Shown: positions 28,452-50,901 of the stretch, piece by piece
How positions within the stretch are numbered: position 1 is the stretch's first letter
How the letters are laid out: each line of letters starts with the position of its first letter
Source: an uncultured Gemmatimonadota bacterium
GTDB lineage: Bacteria > JAAXHH01
Reading direction: 5' to 3'
DNA length: 64,000 nt
Assembly (NCBI GenBank): GCA_951812955.1
Contig: OX638340.1
Span: forward strand, 576,001 to 640,000
Translations under genes and position numbers: made by a program
The notes under the pieces: model-generated
Database searches by the model: none
What the model was told of the DNA's origin: nothing
Seen by the model: the letters and a program-made list of their open reading frames with translations, nothing else

Positions 28452-30788
28452 ATGGTAATGGAGTTTGGCAATATCCTTACCGCTTACTTCGATTTCATCT
28501 GGATGTCGTTCCTGCTTCTGGGTCCGATGTTGATGCTGGGTCTGCTGCTTTCGGGCCTGATCCACGTTTTCATCTCCCGGGAAGCGATACTCAGATGGCT
28601 TCAGGACGACAGCCTTCGCTCGGTCTCAATCAGTTCCGCCGTAGGCGTTCCGGTACCGCTCTGCAGCTGTTCCGTCGTTCCCGTAGTTGCCGAAATGCGA
28701 CGAAAGGGGGCTTCCCGCTCATCCTGCATGGCCTTCCTGATTACGGCGCCTGAAACCGGGGCCGACTCCATCCTCGTCACGAACGCTTTTTTCGGCTTCA
28801 TCGCCGCCGTTGTGCGACCTGTCATCAGTTTTATCACAGCCGTCGTGGCGGGTATTTTCTGCATCGGCCTGATCCGGGACGATAGTGGCGAGGCCAAGCC
28901 GGAGGAGGAAGACCACGGACACGCCCACCACGACCATGACCACGGTCACGACCATGGACATGACCACGATCATGACCACGATCACTCGGTCCACGATCCG
29001 CTGCTGTCGGACAAGGATGACTGCTATGTAAGCCCCTCCGCCATGAAGATCCTCATGACGAAGTGGATCAAGGGGTTGACTACCGTGGCGTCCACCTGGA
29101 GGTTCGGATCGTGGATCAAACCGGAATTCTACCGGGAGATCATCGGAGAGCAACCGGCGAAATCCGCGAATCGGACCGAACTGGATGAGGTGGAAGAAAA
29201 ATACCCCGGGCTCGATTTCAAGAAGATCGTCAAGCATATCTTCCACTACGGCTTTGTCGAGATCGCCGATGATATACTCTTCGCGCTGCTCGTCGGTATC
29301 GCGCTGGGCGGCGTGCTGTTCCTGGTCATACCGGCCGACCTGATGTCCAACGAATACGCACGCTGGCTTTCCTACCCCGTAATGATCATCGTCGGCGTGC
29401 CCCTTTACATCTGCGCCTCCGCCAGCACGCCGATTGCCGCCGCGCTGGTCGCCCGGGGCGTCAGTCCAGGGGCCGCCCTGATATTCCTGATGACAGGCCC
29501 CGCGACCAACACAAGCACCATCGCCATCATCATGAGTCAGTTCGGCGCGCGTTTCGCGGCCGTATACGTCACGTCAGTCATCGCGGTCACCGCGGTGATC
29601 GGCATAGCCATCGATTTCATACTGGTGGCCACCGGGTTTGCCATTTCCGTCAACCTGTTGCCTTCCGATTCCCCCACGCTTCAAATTCTGCAGTGGGGCG
29701 GCGCGCTCGGGCTGATCGCGCTTATCGTCTGGAGGTACCGCGCCGGCGCCATGCGCAGCGGTTACGAAGACCTCATGCTCAACATCCGACCCTTCTCCCG
29801 GCCATGGCGGAACACGTGGAAGCGGCTGACCCGTGACCGGTCGTTCCGGGGTACGATTTCACCCACCACACCCATGGGCATGATGCTGTGGGGCTTGCTG
29901 CTGGTCCTCTTTCTTGGCAGCGGGTTCACGGCCGTGCCGCCGGGTCACGTCGGATACGGCCGGTTGTTCGGCGAGGTATACTGGAAAGACCTTCAGCCCG
30001 GGCTTCATTACCTGGCGCCGCGCCCCCTCGTCCAGGTCGACAAGTGGCCAGTCAGGGAAGTAAAATCAATTATGTCCGAGACACCGTACGAGTACGTGTC
30101 GGGCGACCTGAACATGCTCACGCTCACCCTGGACGTCCAGTACCGGGTAAACGACCCGTACACGTATCACTACCGTACGGTCGATCCGGAAGAGATCATC
30201 GAAGACGCGGTGCGCGAGCACGTTCGTACTTTTGTCAACGCACGTGACCTGGATCGGCTCCTCACTGCATACCGGGCGGAACTGGAAGATGAGCTGACGA
30301 ATCTCTTCGTGACGGATGCCCGGATGCACGGCGACAAGTCGGTGCTTGGCACCGTCGACCTCGTGAAGGTCAGCCTGCTGAACGTCACCCCGGCGGCGGA
30401 AGCCCTGAGTTCCTTCCGGGAGATTTCAAGCGCCCAGGAAGACAGGGAAAGAATCATCGTCAACGCGCAACGGTTCATGGTGTCCCTGGTGCCGCGCGCT
30501 CACGGCAATGCCGAGTATGAGAAAGAACAGGCCGATGGAGAGGCATTTCGCAAGGTGGCGACCTCCGCGGCGGAAGCGGATGCCATTATGGTCATTTCTT
30601 CTGCCATGCAGACGGCGCCGGAAGTCCTGCGGAACATGCTGTGGCGGGAAAAGTTGGAATCCGCTCTCGCCGGCAATCCCAAGATTATCGTGCCCAACAG
30701 ACAGAGTTTCAACAAGGTCGCGATCTGGAAAAAGAGGCCGGCGGAAGCCGCCGCCCCATCCGCCAAGACAGGAGGTAAAGGCAAATGA
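28452..30788 (+). CDS. fusion protein: DUF318/ArsP-type (SO_0444-like Cu/Zn efflux) permease + His-rich loop + HflK-like SPFH (Band 7) domain
   Basis: One uninterrupted 778-codon ORF. N-terminal half is polytopic with 'VPVPLCSCSVVPVVAEM' and 'APETGADS'. Loop with 14 His in 29 residues. From about aa 474, a TM anchor 'MGMMLWGLLLVLFLGSGF' followed by 'VPPGHVGYGRLFGEVYWKDLQPGLHY' and a coiled-coil tail. Confidence 0.75.
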   Translation: MVMEFGNILTAYFDFIWMSFLLLGPMLMLGLLLSGLIHVFISREAILRWLQDDSLRSVSISSAVGVPVPLCSCSVVPVVAEMRRKGASRSSCMAFLITAPETGADSILVTNAFFGFIAAVVRPVISFITAVVAGIFCIGLIRDDSGEAKPEEEDHGHAHHDHDHGHDHGHDHDHDHDHSVHDPLLSDKDDCYVSPSAMKILMTKWIKGLTTVASTWRFGSWIKPEFYREIIGEQPAKSANRTELDEVEEKYPGLDFKKIVKHIFHYGFVEIADDILFALLVGIALGGVLFLVIPADLMSNEYARWLSYPVMIIVGVPLYICASASTPIAAALVARGVSPGAALIFLMTGPATNTSTIAIIMSQFGARFAAVYVTSVIAVTAVIGIAIDFILVATGFAISVNLLPSDSPTLQILQWGGALGLIALIVWRYRAGAMRSGYEDLMLNIRPFSRPWRNTWKRLTRDRSFRGTISPTTPMGMMLWGLLLVLFLGSGFTAVPPGHVGYGRLFGEVYWKDLQPGLHYLAPRPLVQVDKWPVREVKSIMSETPYEYVSGDLNMLTLTLDVQYRVNDPYTYHYRTVDPEEIIEDAVREHVRTFVNARDLDRLLTAYRAELEDELTNLFVTDARMHGDKSVLGTVDLVKVSLLNVTPAAEALSSFREISSAQEDRERIIVNAQRFMVSLVPRAHGNAEYEKEQADGEAFRKVATSAAEADAIMVISSAMQTAPEVLRNMLWREKLESALAGNPKIIVPNRQSFNKVAIWKKRPAEAAAPSAKTGGKGK

Positions 30789-31678
30789 CCGGTAAGGGAC
30801 GTGGCATCCGAACGGCCATCGTCGCGCTCGTGCTGGCGGCGATCGTTTACGACTGTTTCTATGTGATCAACGAAACCCAGCAGGGGGTCCTGACGAACTT
30901 CGGCCGGATTTCGCCTCCGGTGAAGCAGCCCGGACTACATGTCAAGTGGCCCCGACCGATTTCAAGAGTCTACAAGGTGGACCGGAGGCTGCAGACACTC
31001 ACCGACGTGTCCCATGAGTTGATTACCGAAGATCAGAAGAACATCCTGATCAGCGGCTACCTGCTCTGGCGCATCGTAGACCCAATCCTGTATGTCGAGG
31101 CGATACGCACGGGCGCCAATGCAGCCGAACGTCTGCGGGATCTCTACCTTTCGAGCAGTGGGATCGTGATCAGTAACAAGGCCCGTGATGCATTCATCAG
31201 CCTTGGGCTGGAACACGAAGACCTGCACGAAGCGGCCCGTGACATCCTGAGCAGTGTCGCCCCGATTGCCAGTACCAACTATGGTATCGAGGTGCTGAAA
31301 GCCGGTATCATCGAATACACGCTGCCCATGGAAAACCGCCCGGCCGTGATCCAGCGTATGATATCGGAGCGCGCGCGCATCGCGGCCCGGTACCGCAGCG
31401 AGGGCGAGGAGATGGCCATCCGCATCGAAGCGCTGGCAATAAACGAACATGAGAAGCTTATGGCGGAGGCGCACGCGGAAGCCACGGCCATACTCGGTGA
31501 GGCCGAAGCGGAAGCGATGGCTTTGCTGGGCAGGGCTTACCGGAGGGACCCGGCGTTCTACCGGTTCATCCGGGCCCTTGACAGTTATGATCTGATTATC
31601 GACAAAAACACGACCCTTATGTTGCCGGCCGACAACGAACTGTTCAGATACCTGGACAGCAGAACGGTTCCCAGGTAG
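30785..31678 (+). CDS. hflC: HflC-like SPFH-domain protein
   Basis: ATG overlaps the upstream stop (ATGA). 'YVINETQQGVLTNFGRI..PGLHVKWP'. The C-terminus 'DPAFYRFIRALDSY...LFRYL' parallels E. coli HflC 'DPDFYAFIRSLRAY...FFRYM'. Confidence 0.8.
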   Translation: MTGKGRGIRTAIVALVLAAIVYDCFYVINETQQGVLTNFGRISPPVKQPGLHVKWPRPISRVYKVDRRLQTLTDVSHELITEDQKNILISGYLLWRIVDPILYVEAIRTGANAAERLRDLYLSSSGIVISNKARDAFISLGLEHEDLHEAARDILSSVAPIASTNYGIEVLKAGIIEYTLPMENRPAVIQRMISERARIAARYRSEGEEMAIRIEALAINEHEKLMAEAHAEATAILGEAEAEAMALLGRAYRRDPAFYRFIRALDSYDLIIDKNTTLMLPADNELFRYLDSRTVPR

Positions 31679-31695
31679 AGCGAGATCTCAAACCC

Positions 31696-33033
31696 ATGAC
31701 GAACGAAAAGCGACCTTTACCTTACAGCACGCGCGTAATCTATGCCATGTTCGATTGGGCGCGCACCTACGGCTGGAACCGGCTGTTCTGGAGCGTGATC
31801 GCCTTTTCCATCGTGGCCGTGCTGGCCAGCGGGTTTTATATCATAAAGAAAGAAGAGCAGGGCGTCCTCGTTCGTTTCGGCAAGGTGGTGGACGAGAACC
31901 TTGGTCCGGGCATTCATTACTGCGTTCCGTTCATATACGAAACCCACATACGCAAGGTGAAGCGCATCGTCCGTGTCTCTATCGTCAGCGAAGGGACGGC
32001 TGGGGATACGCACGTCACGCTGCTGTCCGGCGACACGAACCTTGTGGAGGTGGATGTGGCCGTGCAGTACAAGATAGACAACCTGCGAAACTATCTCTTT
32101 GCGGTTTCGGACCCGACGATGTTGATGACCATGATCGTACGGGAAGAAATGGTCAATATCGTGGGGCAGAATTTCATCGACCTTATACTCACGTCTAACC
32201 GGAACATCATCGAACGTCATCTCCACGACTTCCTCGCCGGACGTCTCGAAACGATTGACATCGGTATCGAACTCGTCGACCTGAACATCCTGGACATCCG
32301 CCCCATCGAAGAGACCGTAGAGGCCTTCCGGGACGTCAACGATGCCATTTCCGAGCGCATGCAGTCCATCAGCAACGCCAACCTGCGCAGGGAGAAACTG
32401 GTCGCCCGCACGAAGGGCCAGACGGAAGCGATTGTCATGGATGCGAAAGCCACGGCGAGAGAACGCGTTCTGCAGGCCGAAAGCAGTGCCGGCGCATTCT
32501 CGAAACTGCTAGACGAATACGCCAAGCAACCGGCCCAGGTGGGCATTACCCGTTACTGGCAGCGGATGCGAACGATTTTCGCCGAAGCGAACCTGGCCGC
32601 GGTTAATCCCGGCAACGACGCGAATATCGAAGTCAACCTGGTAGACAGCGGCACGGCGTTGACGCCGGTGGAAATGGCTTTCGATTCGCCGGAAGCGTTG
32701 TCGGCCGCCGGCCCCGATTCGCTGGACAGGCCGGTTTATTCGACCTTGCCCCCGGATATTCATCGATATGAGAACATCGACAGGGACGGTTTCCTGATCG
32801 AAGGCAGATTCCATAGCAGGAACACCGAACGGGATCACCTTCCCGTCGCCAGGCCTCGATCGCTCATTTTCGACACGCCTTCCATCTTCAGCCATGGACA
32901 CGTGGCGACAAGCAGCACGGACACGGCGAATCAATCAGGCGAGAAGGCCATGGTCGATACCATGCACGACGAAGAAAGCGAAGAAGAATCTAAAGAGGGC
33001 ACGGAAGGGAGCCAAAGTGATCCGAAGCAATAA
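31696..33033 (+). CDS. hflK: HflK-like SPFH-domain protein with long acidic C-terminal tail
   Basis: 'FYIIKKEEQGVLVRFGKVVDENLGPGIHYCVPF', 'VEAFRDVNDAISE', then a coiled coil. The last 110 aa or so are non-homologous, ending 'DEESEEESKEGTEGSQSD'. Confidence 0.75.
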   Translation: MTNEKRPLPYSTRVIYAMFDWARTYGWNRLFWSVIAFSIVAVLASGFYIIKKEEQGVLVRFGKVVDENLGPGIHYCVPFIYETHIRKVKRIVRVSIVSEGTAGDTHVTLLSGDTNLVEVDVAVQYKIDNLRNYLFAVSDPTMLMTMIVREEMVNIVGQNFIDLILTSNRNIIERHLHDFLAGRLETIDIGIELVDLNILDIRPIEETVEAFRDVNDAISERMQSISNANLRREKLVARTKGQTEAIVMDAKATARERVLQAESSAGAFSKLLDEYAKQPAQVGITRYWQRMRTIFAEANLAAVNPGNDANIEVNLVDSGTALTPVEMAFDSPEALSAAGPDSLDRPVYSTLPPDIHRYENIDRDGFLIEGRFHSRNTERDHLPVARPRSLIFDTPSIFSHGHVATSSTDTANQSGEKAMVDTMHDEESEEESKEGTEGSQSDPKQ

Positions 33034-34180
33034 ATCGCCCGGTCTTGCCTCGCTGGCAGCCGCCATTTTCATCACATTGCTGGCACACCCCTTGCCGGCC
33101 AGGGCGGAAACAGGCATATCCTCGGATGCCATCGTATTCGGTCAAAGCGCATGCTTTACGGGTCCCAACCGGAATCTGGGACTGTACTACAGGGCAGGCA
33201 TTCTTTCCGCATTCGAGGAACGGAACCGAGAGGGCGGGATCAACGGAAGGACGTTAAGGCTGCTTTCGCTGGATGATGGATATGAGCCGGAACAGGCCGC
33301 AGCGAACGCGGAGCGGTTTGCGGCGGAAAATGACGTCTTCGCGGTAATCGGCGGCGTGGGGACGCCGACTGCAAAGCGCATCGCCCCCGTTCTCCGCTCA
33401 GCCGACATACCCTTCGTCGGTCCTTTCACTGGCGCGGATTTCCTGCGTAATTTCGACCGGTTCCCCAACGTCATCAACCTCCGGGCCGCGTACCTGGATG
33501 AAGTCGTGACCATGGTTGATTATATCGTAAATGATCTGGGAAAGAACCGGTTCGGCGTCATCTACCAGGACGACGCCTTTGGACGCTCTGTACTTCGAGA
33601 CTTCCAGATTGCGCTCAACGCCCATGACCTGCCAATCCTTGCAAAGACCGCCCATTCCCGGAACACCCACGCGGTACACGCGGGGTTGTTTATGATCTCC
33701 AAGGCGGACCTCGATGCCATTCTGATTGTGGGATCGTATGCCGCAAACTCTGAGATCATCAACCTGTCCCACTCCCTGGGTCATGACTACATCGTTGCGA
33801 ATCTTTCTTTTGTCCTTTCCCACGAACTGAAGAAGCTGGTCGAAAACCATTCGAACAAAATCCTGGTGACCGAGGTAATACCGGATCCGAACAGCACTTC
33901 CAGCCTGGTAGTCCAGCGTTTCCTGGACGCGTTGCGGCCGGAATACGGAGAGGCCGAGACTGTCACGGCCCTGGTGAACGAAGTGGCCCTGGAAGGCTAC
34001 ATCCTCGGACGTTTCGTAATTGATGTGCTGGAGCGCATGGAAGGCGTTTTGACACGGGAACAATTCATGAACGTCGCGCTGTCTCCCGATAAAGTCATGA
34101 TCGACGACTGGACCCTGGAGTTCGCGCCCGGTACGAATACGGGGTCAAGATACATCCGGCTTACCAATCTGGGCGAATAG
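33017..34180 (+). CDS. periplasmic substrate-binding protein (Leu/Ile/Val-binding, Peripla_BP_6 type), orphan
   Basis: GTG 33017 (GGAAGGGA upstream) gives signal peptide 'LASLAAAIFITLLAHPLPARA'. 'IVFGQSACFTGPN...LDDGYEP...VIGGVGTPT'. No ABC permease or ATPase gene nearby. Confidence 0.75.
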   Translation: MIRSNKSPGLASLAAAIFITLLAHPLPARAETGISSDAIVFGQSACFTGPNRNLGLYYRAGILSAFEERNREGGINGRTLRLLSLDDGYEPEQAAANAERFAAENDVFAVIGGVGTPTAKRIAPVLRSADIPFVGPFTGADFLRNFDRFPNVINLRAAYLDEVVTMVDYIVNDLGKNRFGVIYQDDAFGRSVLRDFQIALNAHDLPILAKTAHSRNTHAVHAGLFMISKADLDAILIVGSYAANSEIINLSHSLGHDYIVANLSFVLSHELKKLVENHSNKILVTEVIPDPNSTSSLVVQRFLDALRPEYGEAETVTALVNEVALEGYILGRFVIDVLERMEGVLTREQFMNVALSPDKVMIDDWTLEFAPGTNTGSRYIRLTNLGE

Positions 34181-34204
34181 CAACCTTTACACGAGGACTG
34201 ACCT

Positions 34205-34693
34205 GTGAAGAAGGTGGATGAGTTTACGGTCGAGGAAATCGGCGAGGAGTGGTTGCGCGAGCTTTACAAGGTCGTCGCGCTCCGGCGCGGTACCATGTTC
34301 AGGATGATTACTGAATCGACCCGTCTTCTCTTGTTCGGTAACGCGGGTGGCGCGGCGCTGATCATCGGCTTCATGAGCGCGGCAACGGGCGACCAGGCGT
34401 CCTCCTACCACTGGTTCAGCTTGTTTTCACTGCTCTCGTTCGCGCTAGGCACCCTTGCCTCCGCCCTGACGATGATCCTGGTGGCCGTAGTCTCGGTAAA
34501 AGAAGCCCACGGCGCCGAGAACGCGCTGAAACGTTTCGTCGATGGAGAAATCAACCGGTCACAGGTCATGTTCACCGTTGAAGAGCAAACCTTCCGTCTC
34601 GCCGATTCGGCCACCGTATCGGGTATTGTGAGTGCACTGGGGTTCATGGTGGGCGGGTTGGTCACGATAGCACTGCTTACGATTTTCTTCTAA
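34205..34693 (+). CDS. hypothetical small membrane protein (3-4 predicted TM segments)
   Basis: GTG start with GAGGA 7 nt upstream. Hydrophobic stretches 'LLLFGNAGGAALIIGFM', 'FSLFSLLSFALGTLASALTMILVAVV', 'GIVSALGFMVGGLVTIALLTIFF'. No family recognised. Confidence 0.5.
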   Translation: MKKVDEFTVEEIGEEWLRELYKVVALRRGTMFRMITESTRLLLFGNAGGAALIIGFMSAATGDQASSYHWFSLFSLLSFALGTLASALTMILVAVVSVKEAHGAENALKRFVDGEINRSQVMFTVEEQTFRLADSATVSGIVSALGFMVGGLVTIALLTIFF

Positions 34694-34766
34694 ATCGGCA
34701 CGCCGCAGTATAGCATACGTCCTCGCAGGAACATACACGCACATAGATGGTTAGGACGCTTCCGCT

Positions 34767-35642
34767 GTGTTGAATGATATTGTATTGCTTCTCCTGACCT
34801 ACTCGGCGGCGATCTTTGCCGTATCCCTTCTGGGCGGCAAACTTTCGGCCATCGTCACCATGACCCATTTCCGCACGCAACTGGTCATGAGTCTCGTGGC
34901 GGGGTTTCTGCTGGGCGTCGCCATGTACCACCTCCTGTTGCACAGCCTGGAGGATATCCCCGGACCGTATGCCGGTGAAATCGCCGTGGGGTGTGCGGTA
35001 CTTGGCGTCATCATGATTATCGTGCTGCTGCGAATATTCCGGTTTCATCAACACGAATTCGATCACGAAGCAGTGGAGACGCCGGACCAGCATGGCCACC
35101 ACGATCATCATGGTTCGGTAAACGTCAACCCCCGCAGCGTGTTCGGTGTCGCCACGGGTCTCGGGCTGCACACGGTAACCGAAGGTATCGCCCTCGGCGC
35201 GAGCATGCGTATCGGTTTGATTCATGAAGGGGAAACGATTCTTGTCGGCCTGGGGGTATTTCTGGCGATCATGCTGCATAAGCCGTTGGACGCGTACTCC
35301 ATTATAGGATTGATGAGAGTGTCGGGCTACGGCGACCGGGCTTGTACGTTGACTAACGTCGGTTTCGCCCTGTTGTGTCCGCTCATTACGATATTGACCT
35401 ACCTTGGCGTCGGCGTGTTGAGTGAACTCAACGAGCTGCATGTCGTGGGATACATCATGGCCTTCGCCGCCGGAGTCTTTCTGTGCATCTCCCTGAGCGA
35501 TCTGCTGCCCGAGATACAGTTTCACACTCACGACCGCGGAATACTCGCCGTCGCCTTCCTCATCGGGATCGGTCTCGCCTACGCCCTGTTCTATTTCGAA
35601 TCCGACACCATGCATGGGCTGGAGACGCTGGACACCCATTAG
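34767..35642 (+). CDS. ZIP family divalent-metal transporter
   Basis: 8-TM-like profile. 'GLHTVTEGIALGAS' and 'MLHKPLDAYSIIG' metal-site helices. His-rich cytoplasmic loop 'HQHEFDHEAVETPDQHGHHDHHG'. 'CISLSDLLPE'. Confidence 0.75.
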   Translation: MLNDIVLLLLTYSAAIFAVSLLGGKLSAIVTMTHFRTQLVMSLVAGFLLGVAMYHLLLHSLEDIPGPYAGEIAVGCAVLGVIMIIVLLRIFRFHQHEFDHEAVETPDQHGHHDHHGSVNVNPRSVFGVATGLGLHTVTEGIALGASMRIGLIHEGETILVGLGVFLAIMLHKPLDAYSIIGLMRVSGYGDRACTLTNVGFALLCPLITILTYLGVGVLSELNELHVVGYIMAFAAGVFLCISLSDLLPEIQFHTHDRGILAVAFLIGIGLAYALFYFESDTMHGLETLDTH

Positions 35643-35669
35643 CGTTCCCCCGCACTGCGAGTACTGGAG

Positions 35670-37898
35670 ATGACGACAAACTCCACGCAAGCGCAGCACT
35701 TCGACGTGGATACCGAAACCCGCGTATTCCACGTAGAGGGCATGACCTGCAGCGCGTGTTCCGCGCGGGTTGAGAAAATCCTTTCCGATGTCCCGGGTGT
35801 CGCCGCCGCCCACGTAAACCTTGCCCTTGAACGTGCGACACTTACAGTCAGGCCAACCCTGGATGTTGACACGCTGGCCGGGCCCGTGGCCGATGCCGGA
35901 TACAGGCTGACTCCCGTACAGGATGATCGATACGAACCTGAAATGGCACGCGGTCAGGCAAGCCGGGATCGTGTCGCCATGATCACCGCGATCATCGTGA
36001 CCTCCCCCTTTCTTCTGCAGATGCTGAGCAGACTGCTGCAAAGCTGGACCGGCATCGAATGGCATATGCCGGTCTACGCGGAAGCGCTGGCGGCTACTGT
36101 TCTGCAGATCGGTATCGGCGCCCGTTATTACCGGAGCGCTTTTCACGCGTTGCGCGGCGGCGGCGCGAACATGGACGTCCTGGTGGCCCTGGGCACGTCG
36201 TCCGCCTTCGCATACAGCTGGTACCTGGTGATCAGTCAGGGTTCCGGCGCGTCGGGGCAACTCTACTTCGAAGCCTCGGCGATCATCATTACTCTCGTGC
36301 TCGTCGGCAAGCACATCGAAACCCGTGCGCGGCGAAGCGCGGGCCGTGCGATACGCGAGCTGCTCGCCATCCGGCCGGTTACCGCGCAGATACGAACGGC
36401 GGACGGTACGGAGTGGGAAATGCCGGTGCACGCTTTGAAGGTGGGTGACGTCGTGATCTGCCGCCCCGGCGACCGGGTAGCCGTGGACGGCGTCGTGCTG
36501 CGGGGAGAGGCCGAAGTCGACGAGGCCCTCATCACCGGCGAGAGCGTACCCGTTCCGAAAAGCCCTGCCGACACCGCGATTGCCGGATCGTTGAATATCA
36601 ACGGCTTCATGGAAATCGAGGCCCGAGCCGTCGGAAGTGATTCGACCCTGGGCCGGGTGATCCGCCTGGTCGAAAACGCCCAGGCCGCCAAACCAGCCAT
36701 CCAGCGCCTGGTGGATCGAATCAGCGGCGTATTCGTACCTGTTGTCGTAGGCCTGGCCGTGATCACTTTTGCCGGGTGGATCCTCGCAGGGGGCGATCTT
36801 GAAACTGCTTTGATAAATGCCGTTTCCGTCCTCGTCATCGCCTGTCCCTGCGCGCTGGGACTGGCGACACCGACGGCGATCGTGGCCGGCGCCGGAGCGG
36901 CGGCCCGGGCAGGTATCCTGGTTAAGGACATCGAATCCCTGGAACAGGCTCACGGGCTGACTCACATCGTATTCGACAAGACGGGAACGCTGACCGAAGG
37001 CAGGTCAGTCCTCGCGTCCCTGGTTCCCCTGGCCGACCGAGGCGAAGAGGAGTTGCTTTCAATCGCCGCGGGGCTGCAGCAGGGCAGTGAGCATCCCTTC
37101 GCCAGGGCATTCAAGTTGGCCGCGGCCGGACGGAGCGTGTCACCCGCCGGGGTTGAACGATTCAGAAGCGTGGTGGCGCGCGGCGTCGAGGGCGAAGTCG
37201 AAGGGACGCGTTACCTGCTCGGCAACCGAAGACTCTTCCACGAGGCCTGCGGGGATACGCCACCGCCAGATTCCCCGCAATCCGGCGGCGTGTCCGCGGT
37301 CTGGCTGGCCGCCCGAGGAGATGCCGGATGCGAATACCTGGCTCGCTTCGATCTCGTCGATGCATTACGCGCCGACGCGGCTGAAGTGGTTGACAGGCTC
37401 AGGAAGCTCGGGGTAAGGATCTTGCTCGTATCGGGCGATGCGGAATCCGTAGTGGCGCAGATCGGCAGCGCGGCGGGTGTCGACGAATCGTACGGCGGCG
37501 CCACGCCGGAAGACAAGGAGCGTATCGTCGGACGATTGACGGAGAGCGGGGCGAAGGTCTGCATGGTCGGCGACGGGATCAACGACGCGCCGGCCCTCGC
37601 CCGCGCAACCGTGGGTATCGCCATGGGTTCCGGTACGGACGTGGCGATGGAAACGGCAGCGATCACGCTGATGAGACCCGAACCGGTCCTGGTGGCCGGC
37701 GCCATCGACGTGAGTCGAAGGACAATCCGGAAAATAAAGCAGAATCTGTTCTGGGCGTTTATCTACAACGTAATCGGACTTCCGCTGGCCGCAACGGGAT
37801 TCCTCTTCCCGGCGCTCGCCGCGGCCATGATGGCCTGCTCCAGCATCAGCGTCGTGCTCAACTCTATGACGCTCCGCGCATGGCGGCCCGATTCGTAA
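35670..37898 (+). CDS. copA: copper-translocating P1B-type ATPase
   Basis: HMA domain 'GMTCSACSARVEK'. TM 'CPCALGLATP'. 'DKTGTLTEG', 'SEHPFARA', 'MVGDGINDAPAL'. Confidence 0.9.
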   Translation: MTTNSTQAQHFDVDTETRVFHVEGMTCSACSARVEKILSDVPGVAAAHVNLALERATLTVRPTLDVDTLAGPVADAGYRLTPVQDDRYEPEMARGQASRDRVAMITAIIVTSPFLLQMLSRLLQSWTGIEWHMPVYAEALAATVLQIGIGARYYRSAFHALRGGGANMDVLVALGTSSAFAYSWYLVISQGSGASGQLYFEASAIIITLVLVGKHIETRARRSAGRAIRELLAIRPVTAQIRTADGTEWEMPVHALKVGDVVICRPGDRVAVDGVVLRGEAEVDEALITGESVPVPKSPADTAIAGSLNINGFMEIEARAVGSDSTLGRVIRLVENAQAAKPAIQRLVDRISGVFVPVVVGLAVITFAGWILAGGDLETALINAVSVLVIACPCALGLATPTAIVAGAGAAARAGILVKDIESLEQAHGLTHIVFDKTGTLTEGRSVLASLVPLADRGEEELLSIAAGLQQGSEHPFARAFKLAAAGRSVSPAGVERFRSVVARGVEGEVEGTRYLLGNRRLFHEACGDTPPPDSPQSGGVSAVWLAARGDAGCEYLARFDLVDALRADAAEVVDRLRKLGVRILLVSGDAESVVAQIGSAAGVDESYGGATPEDKERIVGRLTESGAKVCMVGDGINDAPALARATVGIAMGSGTDVAMETAAITLMRPEPVLVAGAIDVSRRTIRKIKQNLFWAFIYNVIGLPLAATGFLFPALAAAMMACSSISVVLNSMTLRAWRPDS

Positions 37899-37959: not shown

Positions 37960-40116
37960 CTAGGAGGATTCCTGCGGGGCTACGGCAGGTTCGAACGGAA
38001 GGCTAATGGCCATCTCGGTGTACTCCCCCGGTTCGGAATCCACCTCGATGTTACCCCCGTGCTCGCGGACGATATCGTTGGAGAGCGCCAGACCGAGGCC
38101 TGTGCCCTGGTCGGTAGGCTTGGTGGTAAAAAAGGGATTGAAGATCTTCTCCCGCACGTGGGGCGGTATCCCCTTGCCATTGTCCTTTATGCGCACGACG
38201 ATATGATCTTCCTCGCGGCGGGTGGACAGCCAGATCGCGGGTACGTATCCGCTTTCCGTATCCGGGTCTTCTCTTTTCTCGTTGGTCGCATGGCAGGCAT
38301 TGTTCACCATATTCAGAAACACACGGGCCATTTCCTGCGAAACGATCTCAATCTTTCCGAGATCGGGGTCGAAGTCCTCGTTGATTTCGAGTTGAAAATC
38401 CGGGTTGGATGCCCTGGCGGCGTGGTACGCCAGCCGGGCATGTTCTTCCAGTAACGCGTTTACGTCCGTGGACTGCTTGTCTCCCGATCCGCGCCCCATC
38501 TGCAACATGTCCCGCACGATCCGGTTGGCCCGTTCGCCGTGTTCCCTGATCCGGCGCAGATTATCCGTAAGATCACCGCCGATTTCCCGGATGAGATCGT
38601 TCTGCGCTTCGTCGAGCGAACCGCCGCCTTCAGGCAGTTCTTCATGCAGTTCCTCCAGCAGTTCTTCCGACGACTCCGCGAAGTTTTTTACGAAGTTCAG
38701 CGGGTTCTGGATTTCGTGGGCAACGCCTGCAGTTAGTTCGCCGAGGGCCGCCAGCTTTTCCCGCATGACGATCTGGTTCTGCGCCCGCTGCAGTTCGCCC
38801 AACGTTTCTTCCAGTTTGTCGTTCTTGCCCCGCAATTCCTCCGCGAGTTTTTCCACGAGGTTCAGCCGTTGCGCTTCGATCGAATGCAACCTGAACACTT
38901 CAAGCGCCGAGGCCATGTCCGCCACCTCGTCGCGGCCGTCCAGCTCCACTTTTTGTTTCAAGTCGCCCCCCGCCATGCGCCGCATGTGTTCGGACAGAAA
39001 ACCCAGGCGACGCAGCAGGACTTTTCCCACGAACAACCAGGCGATCAGCAAAGCGCCAATCAGGCTGACCGCGTTCAGAGCGAGCAGGAGCTGTCTTCCC
39101 ACCTGGATCGTCCGGGTCGACGCGACCGTCGCGGCCTGGGTGCTTGTCTGCGCCGAGTTTACGAGATTTTCCACCTCAGCAACCAGATCGACCGCGATAT
39201 TCCGATTGTTCTCTATCAGTGCTCGCTGCTGGTCAAGGAGTTCCAGATCTTCCGCACGAATCTGAAATATCTGCTCGTTTCCGCTTCCCAGTTCAAACAA
39301 TTGAGCGAATACCGGTTCGAGCCTCTGTCTCAGTGAAGACGTACCCAGGCCGGCGAGACTTCTTTCCACTCCCCCGCTGGCCGATTCGAACCGTTCCAGC
39401 AAGGGCTCTATCCTGTCGGCGTCGACGAGATTGAAGACATTCGACAGGATCCGGGTACTGACAGTCGCCTCGGTCTGCAATTCAGCGAGGTGGCGGTACC
39501 GCTGAAGTTCCAGCTCGGAAAGATACTCCGAACGGGGCGCCGCGGGCTCGTCGATGTTCCGGTAACCCGTCGTCGTGTAAAACAGCTGGTCGTCCAGGGC
39601 CGGGACAAGAATACCGGTCAGTTCGGATTGCAGCCGCCCCAGTTCCCTTCGTAACAACTGGCTTTGTTCTTCAAGGATGAAACGGCGCGCCACAGACTCC
39701 TCGATCATCCTGATGTTGGACATCAGCGTATTCCCGCTTTCGCTGATGCGTTGAAAGCGCTCGTTTTCCATGCTGTACGCGGCGATTGCCTCCAACTGAT
39801 CCGCGAAACTCTCCCGCTCGTTGGCAATACTCGCGGTCACGGCTTCGAAAGCCTCGGGGGTCTCCGCGGCCGCCAGACGAGGAGCGGCCGCCGCCAGCGT
39901 TCCGCTCCGCTGCGCCACCCCGAAGGCCGCGGCGATTTCGGGTACGGCTACCTCGTTCACTTCGCGCTGTGCTTCACCTACCTCGTTGAAGGCGAACCAC
40001 GCCACCAGACTTGCGAACATGGTGATCGCTACCGCAGTCCCGATACCCAGGTACAGCTGCCCCGAAATTCGGGACGGGCCCTTGTCGTATAACCACAGCA
40101 GCCACTTTTTGATCAT
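37960..40116 (-). CDS. sensor histidine kinase (two TM segments, large extracytoplasmic helical domain, HAMP, HisKA, HATPase_c)
   Basis: HAMP 'MRRMAGGDLKQKVELDGRDEVADMASALEVFR'. H-box 'VAHEIQNPLNFV'. N/G boxes 'NMVNNACHA' and 'DNGKGI...GTGLGLALS'. No receiver domain. Confidence 0.85.
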   Translation of the reverse strand: MIKKWLLWLYDKGPSRISGQLYLGIGTAVAITMFASLVAWFAFNEVGEAQREVNEVAVPEIAAAFGVAQRSGTLAAAAPRLAAAETPEAFEAVTASIANERESFADQLEAIAAYSMENERFQRISESGNTLMSNIRMIEESVARRFILEEQSQLLRRELGRLQSELTGILVPALDDQLFYTTTGYRNIDEPAAPRSEYLSELELQRYRHLAELQTEATVSTRILSNVFNLVDADRIEPLLERFESASGGVERSLAGLGTSSLRQRLEPVFAQLFELGSGNEQIFQIRAEDLELLDQQRALIENNRNIAVDLVAEVENLVNSAQTSTQAATVASTRTIQVGRQLLLALNAVSLIGALLIAWLFVGKVLLRRLGFLSEHMRRMAGGDLKQKVELDGRDEVADMASALEVFRLHSIEAQRLNLVEKLAEELRGKNDKLEETLGELQRAQNQIVMREKLAALGELTAGVAHEIQNPLNFVKNFAESSEELLEELHEELPEGGGSLDEAQNDLIREIGGDLTDNLRRIREHGERANRIVRDMLQMGRGSGDKQSTDVNALLEEHARLAYHAARASNPDFQLEINEDFDPDLGKIEIVSQEMARVFLNMVNNACHATNEKREDPDTESGYVPAIWLSTRREEDHIVVRIKDNGKGIPPHVREKIFNPFFTTKPTDQGTGLGLALSNDIVREHGGNIEVDSEPGEYTEMAISLPFEPAVAPQESS

Positions 40117-41327
40117 GGCATTACGTCCCGGAGGGTATTGATGGGATGGTAACGGCCATCCTTTCCGATCACCGTGAGGAAAACGGCGTCGGAACCCTGG
40201 TTGTCCCCGGCTCCGAATTCAAGACGAAGACCGCCCATATCGATGGTCCCGGCCTGGTTCAGACTTTCCACGAGACAAGTCCGCCTTACGTCGGGACCGC
40301 AGCCTTCGAGCGCGGTGATGGCCAGTCTGCCCGCCAGGTATCCTTCGAAAGAAACGAATCCGGGTGTGGAGCCGGGCGCGTGCGCGGCGAGTGCGCGGCG
40401 ATACCGCACTGCAATGGCAATATTGCCGGCTGCAGGGAAGGGTACTACCTGGGAAACCAGTACACCCTGGCCATCGGGACCCAGCTCACCGGCCAGGGCG
40501 TTGCTTCCCACGAAGGAGATCGTCGCGAACACCGGGTTGAATCCCACGTGCCGCGCCCATGAGATGAGCGTAGCGACCGGATGGTACGCGCCGATGACGA
40601 CCACGGCGTCCGGCTTGCCGGCCTGCAGATCTAGCAGCCCCGCCTTGATCGCCGTGGTGTTCCGGGGATACACGCCGATCGCCACCGGATCCAGGTTCCT
40701 TCGATCCAGCGCTCGCCGCACACCCCGGTAACCCACCCGGCCGAAGGAATCGTTCTGGTACATCACGCCTATGCGCGTGATCCCCAGATCGCGCGAAAGG
40801 CGGTCGACGATTTCCTCGGTTTCCTGGAAATAGGAGGCGCGTAGATTGATGACGCCGGTTTCCGTGTTGTCCCTTAGGAAGATCGCGCCGGTAAATGGCG
40901 CGATATAGGGCACACCGGCCTGCGACGTGATGGGAACGGCCGAACGGGAAGTCGGCGTGCCGACCGCGCCGATCAGCGCGAATACGCCTTCGTCCTCAAT
41001 CAGCTTGCGCGTGTTTGCGATGGCGGCTTCGGGTTCGTAGGCGTCGTCGAGCGTAATGAGCGCAAGCCGCCGTCCATGTACGCCGCCCCTGCGGTTTGCT
41101 TCCTGGAAGGCCGCCTCGATGCCGAGGTTCATGTTGCGGCCGAGTTCCCTGGCAGGACCGCTGAACGCCGCCGACTGTCCGAACAGAATTTGTTCGTCCG
41201 TTACGCCGGGTTCTTCGATCTGGGAGGCGTTCGCGCCGCTGTGTGCTGGAATTAAAGCGGGAGAGAACGCCGTCGCACCAAGGGCGAGTAGTATGGCGAC
41301 CGCCCAGTGGTCACGCGTTCGTCTCAT
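40113..41327 (-). CDS. periplasmic substrate-binding protein (Peripla_BP_6 type), translationally coupled to the kinase
   Basis: Signal peptide 'AVAILLALGATAFSPALIPAHS'. 'ILFGQSAAFSGPA...LDDAYEP...LIGAVGTPT'. 4-nt overlaps at both ends (41324-41327 and 40113-40116). Confidence 0.8.
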   Translation of the reverse strand: MRRTRDHWAVAILLALGATAFSPALIPAHSGANASQIEEPGVTDEQILFGQSAAFSGPARELGRNMNLGIEAAFQEANRRGGVHGRRLALITLDDAYEPEAAIANTRKLIEDEGVFALIGAVGTPTSRSAVPITSQAGVPYIAPFTGAIFLRDNTETGVINLRASYFQETEEIVDRLSRDLGITRIGVMYQNDSFGRVGYRGVRRALDRRNLDPVAIGVYPRNTTAIKAGLLDLQAGKPDAVVVIGAYHPVATLISWARHVGFNPVFATISFVGSNALAGELGPDGQGVLVSQVVPFPAAGNIAIAVRYRRALAAHAPGSTPGFVSFEGYLAGRLAITALEGCGPDVRRTCLVESLNQAGTIDMGGLRLEFGAGDNQGSDAVFLTVIGKDGRYHPINTLRDVMP

Positions 41328-41749
41328 CCATTTTCCTTCCGCTTGACGATCGTCAGGACGTTCTTGTCGTTTTCCCGGCGGTAGCTCAGTTCATCCATCA
41401 TGGTCCGAACCAGATAGATGCCGAGACCGCCGACGGGCCGGTCTTCAACCCCAGACTCGATATCCGGTTCCGGGGAGTCGGTAAGCGGGTTGAACGCCGG
41501 GCCTTCGTCCCGCAACTCGATGGTCAACGTTTCGGAATCGGAGTCCAGTACCACTTCGAATTCGTGTTCCGGGTCGTTGGCGTGGCCGTGGGTAACGATG
41601 TTGACGCCCAGTTCCTCAAGGACCAGCTTGACCTGGTACACCATGCCCGGCGGCCATTCTTCCGACTCGCCAAGTTCGTCCACGGCCTCGTAAATCCGTT
41701 CGAGTTGGTCCAGTCTGGTAGGCAGGCGAAGAGAGAGTTTTCTACGCAT
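41324..41749 (-). CDS. RsbW/SpoIIAB-like anti-sigma-factor-type serine kinase (HATPase_c_2)
   Basis: 141 aa. 'VKLVLEELGVNIVTHG' (N-box region), 'IELRDEGPAFNP', 'GGLGIYLVRTMMDELSY'. Confidence 0.75.
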   Translation of the reverse strand: MRRKLSLRLPTRLDQLERIYEAVDELGESEEWPPGMVYQVKLVLEELGVNIVTHGHANDPEHEFEVVLDSDSETLTIELRDEGPAFNPLTDSPEPDIESGVEDRPVGGLGIYLVRTMMDELSYRRENDKNVLTIVKRKENG

Positions 41750-41757
41750 GGGCGAAC

Positions 41758-42915
41758 CTAGCGTTGAAGCACGGTGACACAGGTTATATCATCCGACTGC
41801 GCCGTCTCCCCCGCGAAATCATGAACCGCTTTGAACACGGCCTTGTTCGCTTCTTCCGTGGTGGCGGGAGGGGAATCCGAGAATACCGCCTGCAGGCGAT
41901 CCATACCGAATTCCTCGCCGTCGGCGTTCATGGCTTCGGTAACTCCGTCCGTGTAGAGCACAAGCAAATCGCCGGGCGAGACCGAGATGGCAGACTGGCC
42001 AAACTCGACGCCGGGGAAGACCCCGAGGGCCATCCCGTCGGTTCCGGGGAGCAGGGTCGAAGAGCCATCGGGATGGACTACGAGCGGGGGATTGTGTCCT
42101 CCATTGGCGTAGTCGACCTGGCCGGTTTCGGGGGTGTACACCGCGTAGAACGTGGTGACGAACATAGCCGCTTCGTTTTCTTCAGTAAGGAGATCGTTGA
42201 CTTCCTTCAATACGGCGCCGGGATCCATGGCCCCGATTGCCGATCCCTTCAGCAGGGTCCGGCTCGACATCATGAACAGGGCCGCCGGCACGCCCTTGTC
42301 GGATACATCGGCGATGGCCAGGCCGATTCTACCGCCAGGCAAGGGAAAGACGTCGAAAAAATCGCCGCCGACTTCTCGGGCGGGCTCCATGTTCGCGAAG
42401 ATCGTGCAGTGATCGGAATCGGGAAACTCGGTCGGCAGAATCGACTGCTGCATCTTGCTGGCCACGTTCAGTTCGTTCTGCAGCCGAACCAGCTTATCCC
42501 GCGACTCCAGGGCTTCGCGCCATTCCTCCATGTTCTTCAGGGTGCGTTCGATGGTTACACGAAGGTCCTGGAAATCGATAGGCTTGGTAATGAAGTCGAA
42601 AGCACCCCGGTTCATGGCCGTCCGGATGTTCTTCATGTCCCCGTATGCGGATACCACGACGGCGCGGATGTCGGGGGCGATGTTCGGTATCTGCGCCAAC
42701 AGGGTCAGACCGTCCATCCTGGGCATGTTGATATCCGATAACACCATATCGATATCGGGGATCTCGCTCAGACGTTCCAGGGCTTCCACGCCGTTCTGGG
42801 CGAAAAACAGGGTGTATTGGCCGGAACGGACATCACGGCGCAATCGCTGACGCATGAGGTGTTCGAGATCCGGCTCATCGTCCACTACAAGGATTTTATA
42901 CGGTGTCTGCGTCAT
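41758..42915 (-). CDS. response regulator receiver fused to PP2C (SpoIIE) phosphatase
   Basis: REC: 'KILVVDDEPD...DMVLSDINMPRMDGL'. PP2C: 'REVGGDFFDVF', 'IADVSDKGVPAALFM', 'LYTDGVTEA', 'QSDDITCV'. Confidence 0.85.
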   Translation of the reverse strand: MTQTPYKILVVDDEPDLEHLMRQRLRRDVRSGQYTLFFAQNGVEALERLSEIPDIDMVLSDINMPRMDGLTLLAQIPNIAPDIRAVVVSAYGDMKNIRTAMNRGAFDFITKPIDFQDLRVTIERTLKNMEEWREALESRDKLVRLQNELNVASKMQQSILPTEFPDSDHCTIFANMEPAREVGGDFFDVFPLPGGRIGLAIADVSDKGVPAALFMMSSRTLLKGSAIGAMDPGAVLKEVNDLLTEENEAAMFVTTFYAVYTPETGQVDYANGGHNPPLVVHPDGSSTLLPGTDGMALGVFPGVEFGQSAISVSPGDLLVLYTDGVTEAMNADGEEFGMDRLQAVFSDSPPATTEEANKAVFKAVHDFAGETAQSDDITCVTVLQR

Positions 42916-43007
42916 CGCATCCCTGGACGCCGGCGCATCCGTTCGCTATCGACGCGCCCGGCATTTGAGCAGGTTTCTACCGTGAAGCGATCGGCCCGCA
43001 CGGCTAC

Positions 43008-43346
43008 TTACTGACCGATCTTATCCACGGCTTCCGCCTGGGTATCGTGGATGGAAATGATCTTGTCAAATCCGCTGATTTCGAAGACTTCACGGATCGG
43101 GTCCGACAGGGAGCACAGCGCGAAAGCGGCATTCCGCTTCTGAAGCAATCTAGCGATCAGCAGGATGACCCTCAGCCCGGCGCTGCTTATATAGGACAGC
43201 GCTCCGAAATCAAGCAACACCTTGCTGTCGTCTTCCGCAATGGCGCCGTTAAGCGCATCCTCGAATTCCCGGGCGTTCGCACCGTCGATTCGACCTTCAA
43301 CCTTCGCAATCAGTACCTCGTTTGCTCGGTCGACACTGATCTCCAT
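43008..43346 (-). CDS. STAS-domain anti-sigma-factor antagonist (RsbV/SpoIIAA-like)
   Basis: 112 aa. 'LLDFGALSYISSAGLRVILL' contains the conserved phosphorylatable Ser context. 'IREVFEISGFDKI'. GGGGGA SD. Confidence 0.85.
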   Translation of the reverse strand: MEISVDRANEVLIAKVEGRIDGANAREFEDALNGAIAEDDSKVLLDFGALSYISSAGLRVILLIARLLQKRNAAFALCSLSDPIREVFEISGFDKIISIHDTQAEAVDKIGQ

Positions 43347-43485
43347 GAAACCATCCCCCTTTATCAGGTTTATAAAATCACCCTATTTGGCAAAAAGGCT
43401 TTATGTACTCCAATGGTAAAACTCGGTTGCGTATCCGGCAGGTGACCCATTGCCGGCCTGATCAATTCCCTGATACGGTACCTAC

Positions 43486-46845: not shown

Positions 46846-46867
46846 AGATCCCTTACCAGCCAGGTGT

Positions 46868-47182
46868 TCAGTAGTCGATGCCAAGTTCAAGCTTGGCGTC
46901 TTCGGTCATCATGTCGATATGCCAGGTCGGTTCCCAGACGATCTCGATCAGCGCGTCCGAGACCTGTTCCAGGTCCTTCACCTTGGTCTCCACCTCGGCG
47001 GGGAGCGACTGGGCCGCCGGACAGTTCGGCGAGGTGAGCGTCATCTTGATGTTCGTCATACCGTCCTGTTGCACGTCGATCTCGTAGATCAGTCCCATTT
47101 CGTAGATGTTGACCGGGATCTCGGGATCGTAACACGACTTCAATACGTCCACGATCTGCTCTTTAACGGCATCCGTATCCAT
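46868..47182 (-). CDS. sufT: SUF-system Fe-S assembly protein, DUF59/SufT type
   Basis: 'CYDPEIPVNIYEMGLIY', 'MTLTSPNCPAA'. Sits between sufD and sufS. Confidence 0.8.
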   Translation of the reverse strand: MDTDAVKEQIVDVLKSCYDPEIPVNIYEMGLIYEIDVQQDGMTNIKMTLTSPNCPAAQSLPAEVETKVKDLEQVSDALIEIVWEPTWHIDMMTEDAKLELGIDY

Positions 47183-47213
47183 CCATAGACTCCTGTAAGC
47201 GTGAATGCGCCGG

Positions 47214-48584: not shown

Positions 48585-48612
48585 TTCGTGTTCCCGTTCT
48601 CCCTGTGATCGC

Positions 48613-49377: not shown

Positions 49378-49434
49378 GTTACGTTCCGTCTCCCGTTAAT
49401 GTATTGAACAGATTCCCGACTGCCGTCCGCTCCG

Positions 49435-50868: not shown

Positions 50869-50901
50869 TTTCTCTCCTTGAAACGAATGTAACCCGCCGC
50901 G

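Follow-up and report, generated by a model that had tools for sequence, protein, structure and literature searches.

A mobile partner-switching cassette with a TorS-like sensor kinase, a dedicated binding protein and no linked sigma factor: a candidate regulator of ammonium uptake and nitrogen assimilation

Introduction

What does a partner-switching module control when no sigma factor is encoded next to it? This question is raised by a five-gene operon on the minus strand of a 64-kb stretch of DNA from an uncultured Gemmatimonadota bacterium (GenBank assembly GCA_951812955.1, contig OX638340.1, positions 576,001 to 640,000), hereafter the window, to which all coordinates refer unless a locus is named. 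The operon encodes a STAS-domain protein, a response regulator that combines a receiver (REC) with a PP2C phosphatase, an RsbW-like serine kinase, a periplasmic binding protein (PBP) and a histidine kinase (HK). Partner-switching modules that are not linked to a sigma factor are common in genomes, and their outputs are mostly not known; the operon described here offers a concrete candidate output, namely ammonium transport and control of glutamine synthetase (GS), along with a defined extracellular input. We consider it fairly probable that the five genes form a self-contained, horizontally mobile cassette in which a ligand-driven HK sets the phosphorylation state of the STAS protein via REC-PP2C, with control of ammonium uptake and nitrogen assimilation as the output.

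A conserved five-gene cassette

The five genes, with their Pfam matches, are arranged as follows, in the order of transcription:

43346..43008, minus strand: STAS-only protein of the anti-sigma-antagonist type, 112 amino acids (aa) (STAS, 3.7e-21)
42915..41758, minus strand: REC-PP2C response regulator with a SpoIIE-type serine phosphatase, 385 aa (Response_reg, 2.8e-25; SpoIIE, 8.9e-54)
41749..41324, minus strand: RsbW/SpoIIAB-like GHKL serine kinase, 141 aa (HATPase_c_2, 4.1e-29)
41327..40113, minus strand: secreted LivJ-type binding protein (PBP), 404 aa (Peripla_BP_6, 2.7e-53)
40116..37960, minus strand: membrane histidine kinase (HK), 718 aa (TorS_sensor_domain, 4.1e-9; HAMP, 6.2e-9; HisKA, 1.5e-9; HATPase_c, 9.1e-24)

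The spacing between the STAS and REC-PP2C genes is 92 nucleotides (nt), the gap between REC-PP2C and the RsbW-like gene is 8 nt (41750-41757), and 4-nt overlaps occur at the RsbW-like/PBP and PBP/HK junctions. The open reading frame (ORF) coordinates and the Pfam matches thus bear out the gene order, the domain assignments, the 8-nt gap, the 4-nt overlaps and the operon-like spacing described in an earlier note on this DNA.

A database search with HK returned one identical match, on a 3.8-Mb contig, together with numerous relatives that share 60% of its residues or more; exact look-up of the RsbW-like protein and HK sequences of the window found no record. A scan with one genome per species yielded 408 relatives, of which the best 80 were taken as loci L002-L081; locus counts refer to L001-L081 (81 loci), many of which are related to one another and so are not independent. 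The PBP and HK genes are present in all 81 loci, REC-PP2C in 80, the RsbW-like gene in 79 and STAS in 71. The order REC-PP2C, RsbW-like kinase, PBP, HK is nearly invariant, with a 4-nt overlap as the commonest junction spacing; the gene order of the window is found in 46 loci, and in 21 the STAS gene is convergent and immediately follows HK. Independent gene calls agree with this synteny. Recurring in 81 loci, the five-gene set is a real conserved cassette, well beyond chance.

Spread of the cassette across phylum labels

The metagenome-assembled genomes (MAGs) that carry L002-L081 are labeled as Latescibacterota, Acidobacteriota, Gemmatimonadota, Chloroflexota/Dehalococcoidia, Alphaproteobacteria, Opitutales, Spirochaetia, Rhodothermales and Azotimanducaceae/Pseudomonadales, that is, about nine phyla among the record labels, and the closest relatives of the window are labeled Latescibacterota (91% identity). 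Across these labels, identity to the window is 62-72% for REC-PP2C, 58-73% for PBP, 52-65% for HK, 50-68% for STAS and 40-58% for the RsbW-like kinase.

The topology of a neighbor-joining tree of REC-PP2C, PBP and HK conflicts with the labels: Latescibacterota are found in at least four clades, Opitutales are nested inside a Latescibacterota clade, Spirochaetia nest in Chloroflexota, and Rhodothermales nest in Dehalococcoidia. Many of the L002-L081 records are single-contig chromosomes, and mis-binning is therefore unlikely to be the explanation. Transposase or insertion sequence (IS)-type genes lie directly beside the cassette in L001 (12663-13232) and L089 (3843-4805), as detected with Pfam, and also in L046 (12345-13187), L051 (4753-6255) and L058 (12467-13477), as read from the translations. 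The conflict between the tree and the labels, together with the flanking IS and transposase genes, points to horizontal movement of the whole pathway across phylum labels.

The isolate names SB06xx_bin, RHO, IRC, COS, PNGco and Plut belong to what we take to be published sponge and coral MAG series, and the same phyla appear among the MAGs of the Wellcome sponge genome notes; the OZ-series accessions could not be matched in those notes. Judging from the isolate names and these phyla, most carriers of the cassette would appear to be sponge or coral symbionts.

Two kinds of additional genes were observed within or next to the cassette. In one Latescibacterota/Gemmatimonadota clade (L043, L048, L050, L052, L067 and L068), and also in L080, STAS and REC-PP2C are separated by an inserted gene of about 556 aa, the translation of which reads as a Na+/H+ exchanger with a C-terminal region of the CBS type. 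An additional binding protein of about 520 aa is encoded after HK in L048 and L050.

The output half: the components of a partner switch

Conserved residues were checked in alignments of 72-81 homologs from related loci (72 for STAS, 81 for REC-PP2C). Residues S54 and S55 of the STAS motif SYISSAGLR show at least 97% conservation, and the motif is retained in the distant relatives L091 and L093. Ser55 is the predicted phospho-acceptor, and by its position in the motif it presumably corresponds to the phospho-serine Ser58 of SpoIIAA. The STAS protein scores above the cut-off with the NCBIfam model ant_ant_sig (79.6 bits) as well as with Pfam STAS, and its nearest PDB sequences are TM1442 and SpoIIAA. 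The RsbW-like kinase retains the conserved N-box Asn50, G1 Asp81 and G2 GGLG; its nearest PDB sequences are RsbW (6m36) and SpoIIAB (1th8), and the NCBIfam RsbW and SpoIIAB models score it below their cut-offs. In REC-PP2C, the receiver residues D12, D13, D61, S89 and K111 and the phosphatase motifs GGDFFD, ADVSxKG, YTDG and DD(I/V)T are conserved.

The STAS, kinase and phosphatase elements of a partner switch are therefore in place, namely the phosphorylatable serine of STAS, the boxes of the GHKL kinase and the metal-binding aspartates of PP2C, and so are those of a two-component system, with the H-box AHEIQNPL and HATPase_c in HK and the D-D-D-S/T-K residues in the receiver. HK itself has no receiver domain detectable with Pfam. 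On this ground, REC-PP2C had been put forward as the obvious partner of HK, and the synteny of the two genes in 80 of the 81 loci, mostly within a set of overlapping genes, makes REC-PP2C the evident candidate.

Other phosphatases of this kind were encountered in different settings. The window encodes a second PP2C phosphatase (2615-4369, minus strand; GAF and SpoIIE domains, 584 aa) that has no adjacent STAS or kinase gene and could also target the cassette STAS. A REC-PP2C that is 44% identical to that of the window is encoded on the Runella rosea plasmid NZ_CP030852.1 (L090) in another sigma-less layout that consists of an MFS transporter, a 1265-aa sensor kinase, a 298-aa "ATP-binding protein" and REC-PP2C.

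The input half: a TorS-like sensor and its binding protein

A hydropathy scan of HK shows two transmembrane segments, at about residues 20-46 and 339-374, that flank a periplasmic domain of about 295 residues and are followed by HAMP, HisKA and HATPase_c. The Pfam TorS_sensor_domain (PF21689) matches HK with 36.8 bits against a 27-bit cut-off, and the NCBIfam model TMAO_torS (TIGR02956) aligns with residues 17-447 (2e-52) at 178 bits, far below its 676-bit cut-off. In an AlphaFold2 model of residues 1-432, the pLDDT is about 85-95 across most of positions 60-320. The best PDB matches of this model in Foldseek are TorS sensor structures (3o1i, 3o1j, 3o1h and 3i9y; probability 1.00, target-normalized TM-score 0.80-0.83), the first three of which are TorS-TorT complexes (0.80-0.82). 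The predicted structure and the Pfam match concur in identifying the periplasmic domain of HK as a TorS-like stacked helical sensor. The family of this sensor is small, with 153 matches at E<=1e-30 among 1.84 billion representative proteins.

The N-terminus of the PBP reads as signal-peptide-like in the translation, and the best PDB match of the protein is 4kv7 (7.7e-69). Naming of the ligand by homology was abandoned: the PDB relatives 4kv7, 3lop and 4m88 are generically named, and the similarities to LivJ, UrtA and aromatic-acid binders are equally weak. Homologs of the PBP are encoded next to chemoreceptors in other bacteria. In Terrarubrum flagellatum, the gene of a 51%-identical PBP overlaps by 4 nt a chemoreceptor gene, the periplasmic domain of which is homologous to the HK sensor, and in the metagenomic relatives L094 and L095 a Peripla_BP_6 protein is followed by a TorS_sensor, HAMP and MCPsignal protein. 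A chemoreceptor or a large hybrid regulator is encoded after the 39-51%-identical PBPs of Phaeobacter inhibens, Ruegeria TM1040 and Burkholderia stagnalis. For the downstream proteins of Phaeobacter and Burkholderia, no homology to the sensor is claimed, the BLASTP similarity being confined to the HAMP region; sequence comparison points to such homology in Terrarubrum, Azospirillum, L094 and L095 only.

Families of ABC permeases and ATPases were not found among the conserved neighbors of the cassette. Because no ABC genes are nearby and the homologs are paired with chemoreceptors, the PBP is probably a dedicated sensor partner and not a transport component, which upholds the earlier proposal of binding-protein-assisted sensing. 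The PBP and the TorS-like domain would then constitute a reusable input module that is common to kinases and chemoreceptors.

Genes for gamma-glutamyltranspeptidase are located near the cassette or the PBP-chemoreceptor pair in L089 (756-2498), L054 (3691-5358) and L095 (4703-6319), which may hint at a gamma-glutamyl compound or glutamate as the ligand.

No linked sigma factor

The window was searched for sigma-70-family proteins using phmmer with five sigma queries at E<=1e-2, and no segment of this family was detected anywhere in its 64 kb. A sigma-70-family ORF lies within 10 kb of the cassette in seven of the 81 loci, the sole one within 2 kb being a 613-aa housekeeping RpoD. No sigma factor is syntenic with the cassette across the 81 loci, that is, the partner switch has no cognate sigma factor in cis. 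The observation in the earlier note that neither the operon nor its immediate vicinity encodes a sigma factor thus extends to the entire window and to the other loci. The precedent offered there for a sigma-independent output, HsbR-HsbA of Pseudomonas, is apt as a case of an operon without a sigma gene but not as a case of sigma independence, given that HsbR-HsbA acts on RpoS and FlgM/FliA, both encoded elsewhere (PMC6482189). It follows that a sigma-less operon is not proof of sigma independence.

A classical switch could accordingly operate in trans: the RsbW-like kinase would be the anti-sigma factor for an alternative sigma factor encoded elsewhere, dephosphorylated STAS would free that sigma factor, and the nitrogen genes described below, if involved, would be its regulon. 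The resemblance of the two cassette proteins to SpoIIAA/TM1442 and to RsbW/SpoIIAB is compatible with such a switch, and so are the regulation of RpoS by HsbR/CrsR-type systems from a separate locus (PMC6482189) and the RsbK-RsbY pathway of Bacillus cereus, which feeds SigB (PMC9912610). On the other side, apart from the scarcity of sigma-70-family genes around the cassette, the RsbW-like kinase falls far short of the NCBIfam RsbW and SpoIIAB cut-offs, and a lineage-specific sigma partner is hard to square with the portability of the cassette across about nine phylum labels. The carrier lineages are not known to have any single alternative sigma factor in common. A sigma factor acting in trans is, in our view, possible but on balance doubtful.

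The upstream region of the operon contains a conserved element:

43347..43412, minus strand: conserved block upstream of the STAS gene, in the alignment of the window with L002-L007

This block holds TTTG...TAaaCCTG, has an inverted repeat embedded in it (TGCC-N6-7-GGCA, of which the window has an imperfect copy) and terminates in a GGGGG ribosome-binding site. By its sequence, it may be a promoter akin to those of the FCB group; the sigma-70 consensus scan gave nothing there, and the hits of the sigma-70-type promoter and terminator scan over 37.7-43.7 kb were not above those in shuffled sequence. Sigma-54 promoters were essentially absent upstream of the STAS and REC-PP2C genes as well as the ammonium transporter (amt) and ATP-grasp genes discussed below, in all loci searched; a TGG-N10-GC element that the window clade carries farther upstream of STAS was rejected as a firm sigma-54 site, its conservation being only partial. 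An RNA structure in the 92-nt spacer between STAS and REC-PP2C was also rejected (z-score 0.02), and Rfam and tRNA scans of the window gave no matches.

Nitrogen genes as recurrent neighbors

The sole widely recurrent neighbors of the cassette are nitrogen genes, namely amt, glnK, glnE and glnA, along with a trio of genes for ATP-grasp, Alpha-E and transglutaminase-like proteins. An amt gene (Pfam, 5.5e-98) is present within 10 kb in 44 of the 81 loci and no farther than 200 nt from a cassette gene in 26, among which it is located beside STAS in 17 and beside HK in nine, 23-45 nt away in the latter case. The following arrangements were observed:

amt followed by STAS, convergent on HK: about 14 Latescibacterota-type loci (L088 by independent gene calls)
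amt followed by STAS, REC-PP2C and the rest: L024, L059, L070
amt, glnK, STAS: L046, L056
glnE, STAS: L054, L089
HK followed by amt: nine loci
ATP-grasp, amt, Alpha-E, transglutaminase, then STAS through HK, on a single strand: Acidobacteriota loci

The association extends to divergent relatives of the cassette. In L093 (27% sensor identity), the genes STAS, amt and glnA are divergent from RsbW, REC-PP2C, PBP and HK, and in L091 (32% sensor identity) glnE is located just upstream. The GS gene of L093 (2161-3223, minus strand) consists of two overlapping ORFs, with the Gln-synt_N and Gln-synt_C domains, respectively, so a frameshift, a pseudogene or an assembly error is possible.

Two unrelated Amt clades are linked to the cassette. 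The main one (amt genes in L008-L072) is 72-86% identical across the labels Latescibacterota, Acidobacteriota, Chloroflexota, Verrucomicrobiota and Alphaproteobacteria, a degree of conservation that exceeds that of the cassette proteins; the second (L046, L056, L059 and L070) is 30-35% identical to the main clade.

The trio is represented in the window by the following genes:

26595-28028, minus strand: circularly permuted ATP-grasp protein (Pfam CP_ATPgrasp_2, 1.3e-154)
25626-26594, minus strand: Alpha-E protein (Pfam Alpha-E, 5.9e-63)
24704-25621, minus strand: transglutaminase-like protein (Pfam Transglut_core, 4e-23)

These genes (28028-24704) share their strand with the cassette and are 74%, 55% and 53% identical, respectively, to the cassette-adjacent trio of other loci in tblastn comparisons. 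In 21 of the 81 loci, the trio is no more than 10 kb away, often directly after HK. In papers on the related Anbu operon, an operon of the trio type is cited as induced under nitrogen limitation in Pseudomonas putida (PMC6376114, PMC5666114). Altogether, at least one nitrogen-linked neighbor (amt, a gln gene or the trio) is found within 10 kb in 55 of the 81 loci.

The recurrence of amt, glnK, glnE, glnA and the trio across deep divergence is the reason for proposing a nitrogen output. Neither this link nor the spread of the cassette across phyla was noticed in the earlier note. Furthermore, given that the cassette remains intact across phyla, its target should either travel along or be universal, which favors nitrogen-assimilation proteins or genes over a lineage-specific alternative sigma factor.

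Several observations weigh against control of nitrogen assimilation. No nitrogen-linked neighbor is found within 10 kb in 26 of the 81 loci, and the window is itself poor in such genes: tblastn of the window for amt, glnK and glnE gave nothing, a Pfam scan of its ORFs up to about 56 kb revealed no nitrogen-assimilation gene, glnA included, and what it has is just the trio, 10 kb away beyond an inserted block. The neighbor counts are raw counts from loci many of which are related, so that they are not independent. Gene neighborhood gives association and not direction, such that Amt could be an input to the cassette and not its output. Finally, no literature was found on the cassette, a STAS-Amt link, an Amt-SpoIIE fusion or "Versatilivorator".

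One form that the link could take is direct control at the protein level, whereby the STAS protein or the RsbW-like kinase would bind or phosphorylate Amt, GlnK/PII, GlnE or GS, as an externally driven counterpart of PII. STAS domains are known to regulate SulP transporters, MlaB regulates the MlaFEDB transporter, and in cyanobacteria the PP2C enzyme PphA removes the phosphate from PII. The positions of the genes fit this possibility: the cassette gene that most often adjoins amt is STAS (17 of the 26 close adjacencies), STAS has the same orientation as the amt, amt-glnK or glnE genes that it follows or the amt-glnA genes that it precedes, and the cassette is accompanied on its travels by the main linked Amt clade. 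In addition, glnK accompanies the linked amt in two loci only, despite the common pairing of amtB with glnK (PMC3831643). However, the lineage of the window and 37 of the 81 loci have no nearby amt, and the argument is one from gene neighborhood, in which co-transcription may equally mean shared regulation. Taken together, these considerations make direct control of the nitrogen proteins rather unlikely.

The opposite direction, in which Amt would be a co-sensor that acts together with HK in the manner of DctA-DcuS, so that the cassette would report ammonium flux along with the PBP ligand and would have its output elsewhere, appears quite improbable. This arrangement could account for the nine loci in which amt directly follows HK, and co-sensing by a transporter is established for DctA-DcuS (PMC5703999). 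Nevertheless, amt is found beside STAS more often than beside HK, HK already has a dedicated binding-protein input, and the adjacency of glnE and glnA would be left unexplained.

A model for the cassette and its implications

For the reading that we favor, in which the cassette converts an extracellular signal into control of ammonium uptake and nitrogen assimilation, a sequence of events can be proposed by analogy with characterized systems; within it, we infer the transfer of phosphate, the sign that regulation takes, the ligand and the target molecule. The secreted PBP would capture an external small ligand and dock on the TorS-like domain of HK, as in TorT/TorS. HK would then control phosphorylation of the REC-PP2C receiver, and the phosphorylated receiver would switch PP2C on, as in RsbK-RsbY and HptB-HsbR. 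The active phosphatase would strip from Ser55 of STAS the phosphate added by the RsbW-like kinase, and unphosphorylated STAS would bind the RsbW-like kinase in a partner switch and possibly also a target of its own.

In a bolder version of this scheme, which we consider unlikely, the STAS protein would be the effector of a portable outside-in nitrogen module that directly gates the co-transferred Amt and/or modulates GS, GlnE or PII; this would amount to a PII-like function performed by an unrelated fold and horizontally spread among sponge and coral symbionts of many phyla. Should the connection with nitrogen genes prove real, the cassette would provide a non-PII route into nitrogen control and a new output class for STAS proteins, and it would be a marker of niche-specific horizontal transfer of entire signaling pathways. 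The MAG names suggest a shared host-associated habitat in which host ammonium and organic nitrogen would be the main currency.

Genes flanking the cassette in the window

In the window, HK and the trio are separated by a block of genes on the opposite strand:

28452..37898, plus strand: metal/SPFH block, consisting of an ArsP-SPFH fusion, two SPFH proteins, a second binding protein (PBP2), a 162-aa ORF, a ZIP transporter and a P-type ATPase (Pfam)

The suggestion of the earlier note that this cluster is the target of the STAS output is highly improbable: it has in its favor the adjacency in the window and in L003-L007 and the presence inside the block of PBP2, a 37%-identical paralog of the cassette PBP, but this adjacency is confined to relatives with 84-91% HK identity, and the block varies in content among these, is absent from the other 75 loci and interrupts the widely conserved junction of HK with ATP-grasp. 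The restriction to the closest relatives, combined with the direct contact of HK and ATP-grasp genes in other lineages, makes the block look like a lineage-specific insertion that lies outside the signaling system. No convincing repeats were found to flank it.

No ABC permease or ATPase adjoins PBP2 (33029-34180, plus strand; E 3e-75 against the cassette PBP), which apart from the window occurs only in L003, L006 and L007, all of them closest relatives, and might supply the same HK with a second ligand input. The ORF at 28452-30788 encodes an unusual fusion of an ArsP_1 permease with SPFH (778 aa) and includes, at 28926-28985 (plus strand), a 12-nt periodic CAC/GAC/CAT repeat that codes for a His/Asp-rich stretch.

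Directly upstream of STAS, the window carries two divergent genes for PhyH-family dioxygenases (43486-44277, minus strand, and 44502-45479, plus strand). In 20 loci, almost all of them labeled Latescibacterota, PhyH genes are likewise found with the cassette. Upstream of the PhyH genes is an ordinary Suf iron-sulfur cluster (45565-51420, minus strand; SufS, SufD, SufC and SufB) with an Rrf2 regulator.

Comparison with known systems

Each half of the cassette is known already, one as a two-component system that feeds a partner switch and the other as a binding-protein-dependent TorS-like sensor; in the literature searched, we did not find the two halves combined, nor the regular absence of a sigma factor, the nitrogen linkage or the cross-phylum mobility.

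The closest parallels to the output half come from two types of systems. In the Bacillus cereus RsbK-RsbY-RsbV-RsbW-SigB pathway, as in the cassette model, an HK phosphorylates a REC-PP2C regulator that controls a STAS/RsbW switch (PMC9912610). That system is part of the sigB operon and has SigB as its output, whereas in the cassette REC-PP2C adjoins HK and no sigB-type gene is linked. RsbK of B. cereus is a cytoplasm-facing hybrid kinase without a binding-protein input, unlike the cassette, in which the input consists of a TorS-like periplasmic domain and a binding protein. HptB-HsbR-HsbA of Pseudomonas aeruginosa and CrsR-CrsA of Shewanella similarly comprise a phosphorelay-fed REC, a PP2C, a GHKL kinase and a STAS protein, with the sigma factors outside the operon (PMC6482189). 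However, HsbR and CrsR are single proteins that unite REC, PP2C and kinase, and they receive their input from hybrid kinases via Hpt, whereas the cassette has two separate ORFs and a simple HK next to them, with no Hpt gene; and the outputs of HsbR/CrsR are RpoS and FlgM/FliA, whereas the neighborhood of the cassette points to nitrogen genes.

The input half resembles TorT-TorS, the trimethylamine N-oxide (TMAO) sensing system of Escherichia coli and Vibrio, in that a binding protein without a transporter signals through a helical TorS-type sensor. The differences are in the binding protein, which is of the TorT type in one case and of the Peripla_BP_6/LivJ type in the other, in the kinase, which in TorS is a hybrid with REC plus HPt and in the cassette has neither, and in the partner, which is the DNA-binding TorR as opposed to REC-PP2C.

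The Synechocystis IcfG cluster is a further sigma-less STAS module. Likewise, SypE-SypA of Vibrio fischeri and BtrU/V/W of Bordetella combine a STAS phosphoprotein, a kinase and a PP2C, and act on something other than a linked sigma factor (PMC8256260, PMC10120452). All three differ from the cassette in having no input from a binding protein and a TorS-like kinase and have not been reported beside amt or gln genes.

Finally, there is an analogy, in function only, with GlnK (PII)-AmtB and PII-GlnE, where a small signaling protein encoded beside amt or glnE reports nitrogen status through its modification (PMC3831643). The fold of PII is unrelated to that of STAS, and its uridylylation is driven by intracellular glutamine and 2-oxoglutarate, whereas the modification of the cassette STAS would be serine phosphorylation by a GHKL kinase under the command of an extracellular sensor.

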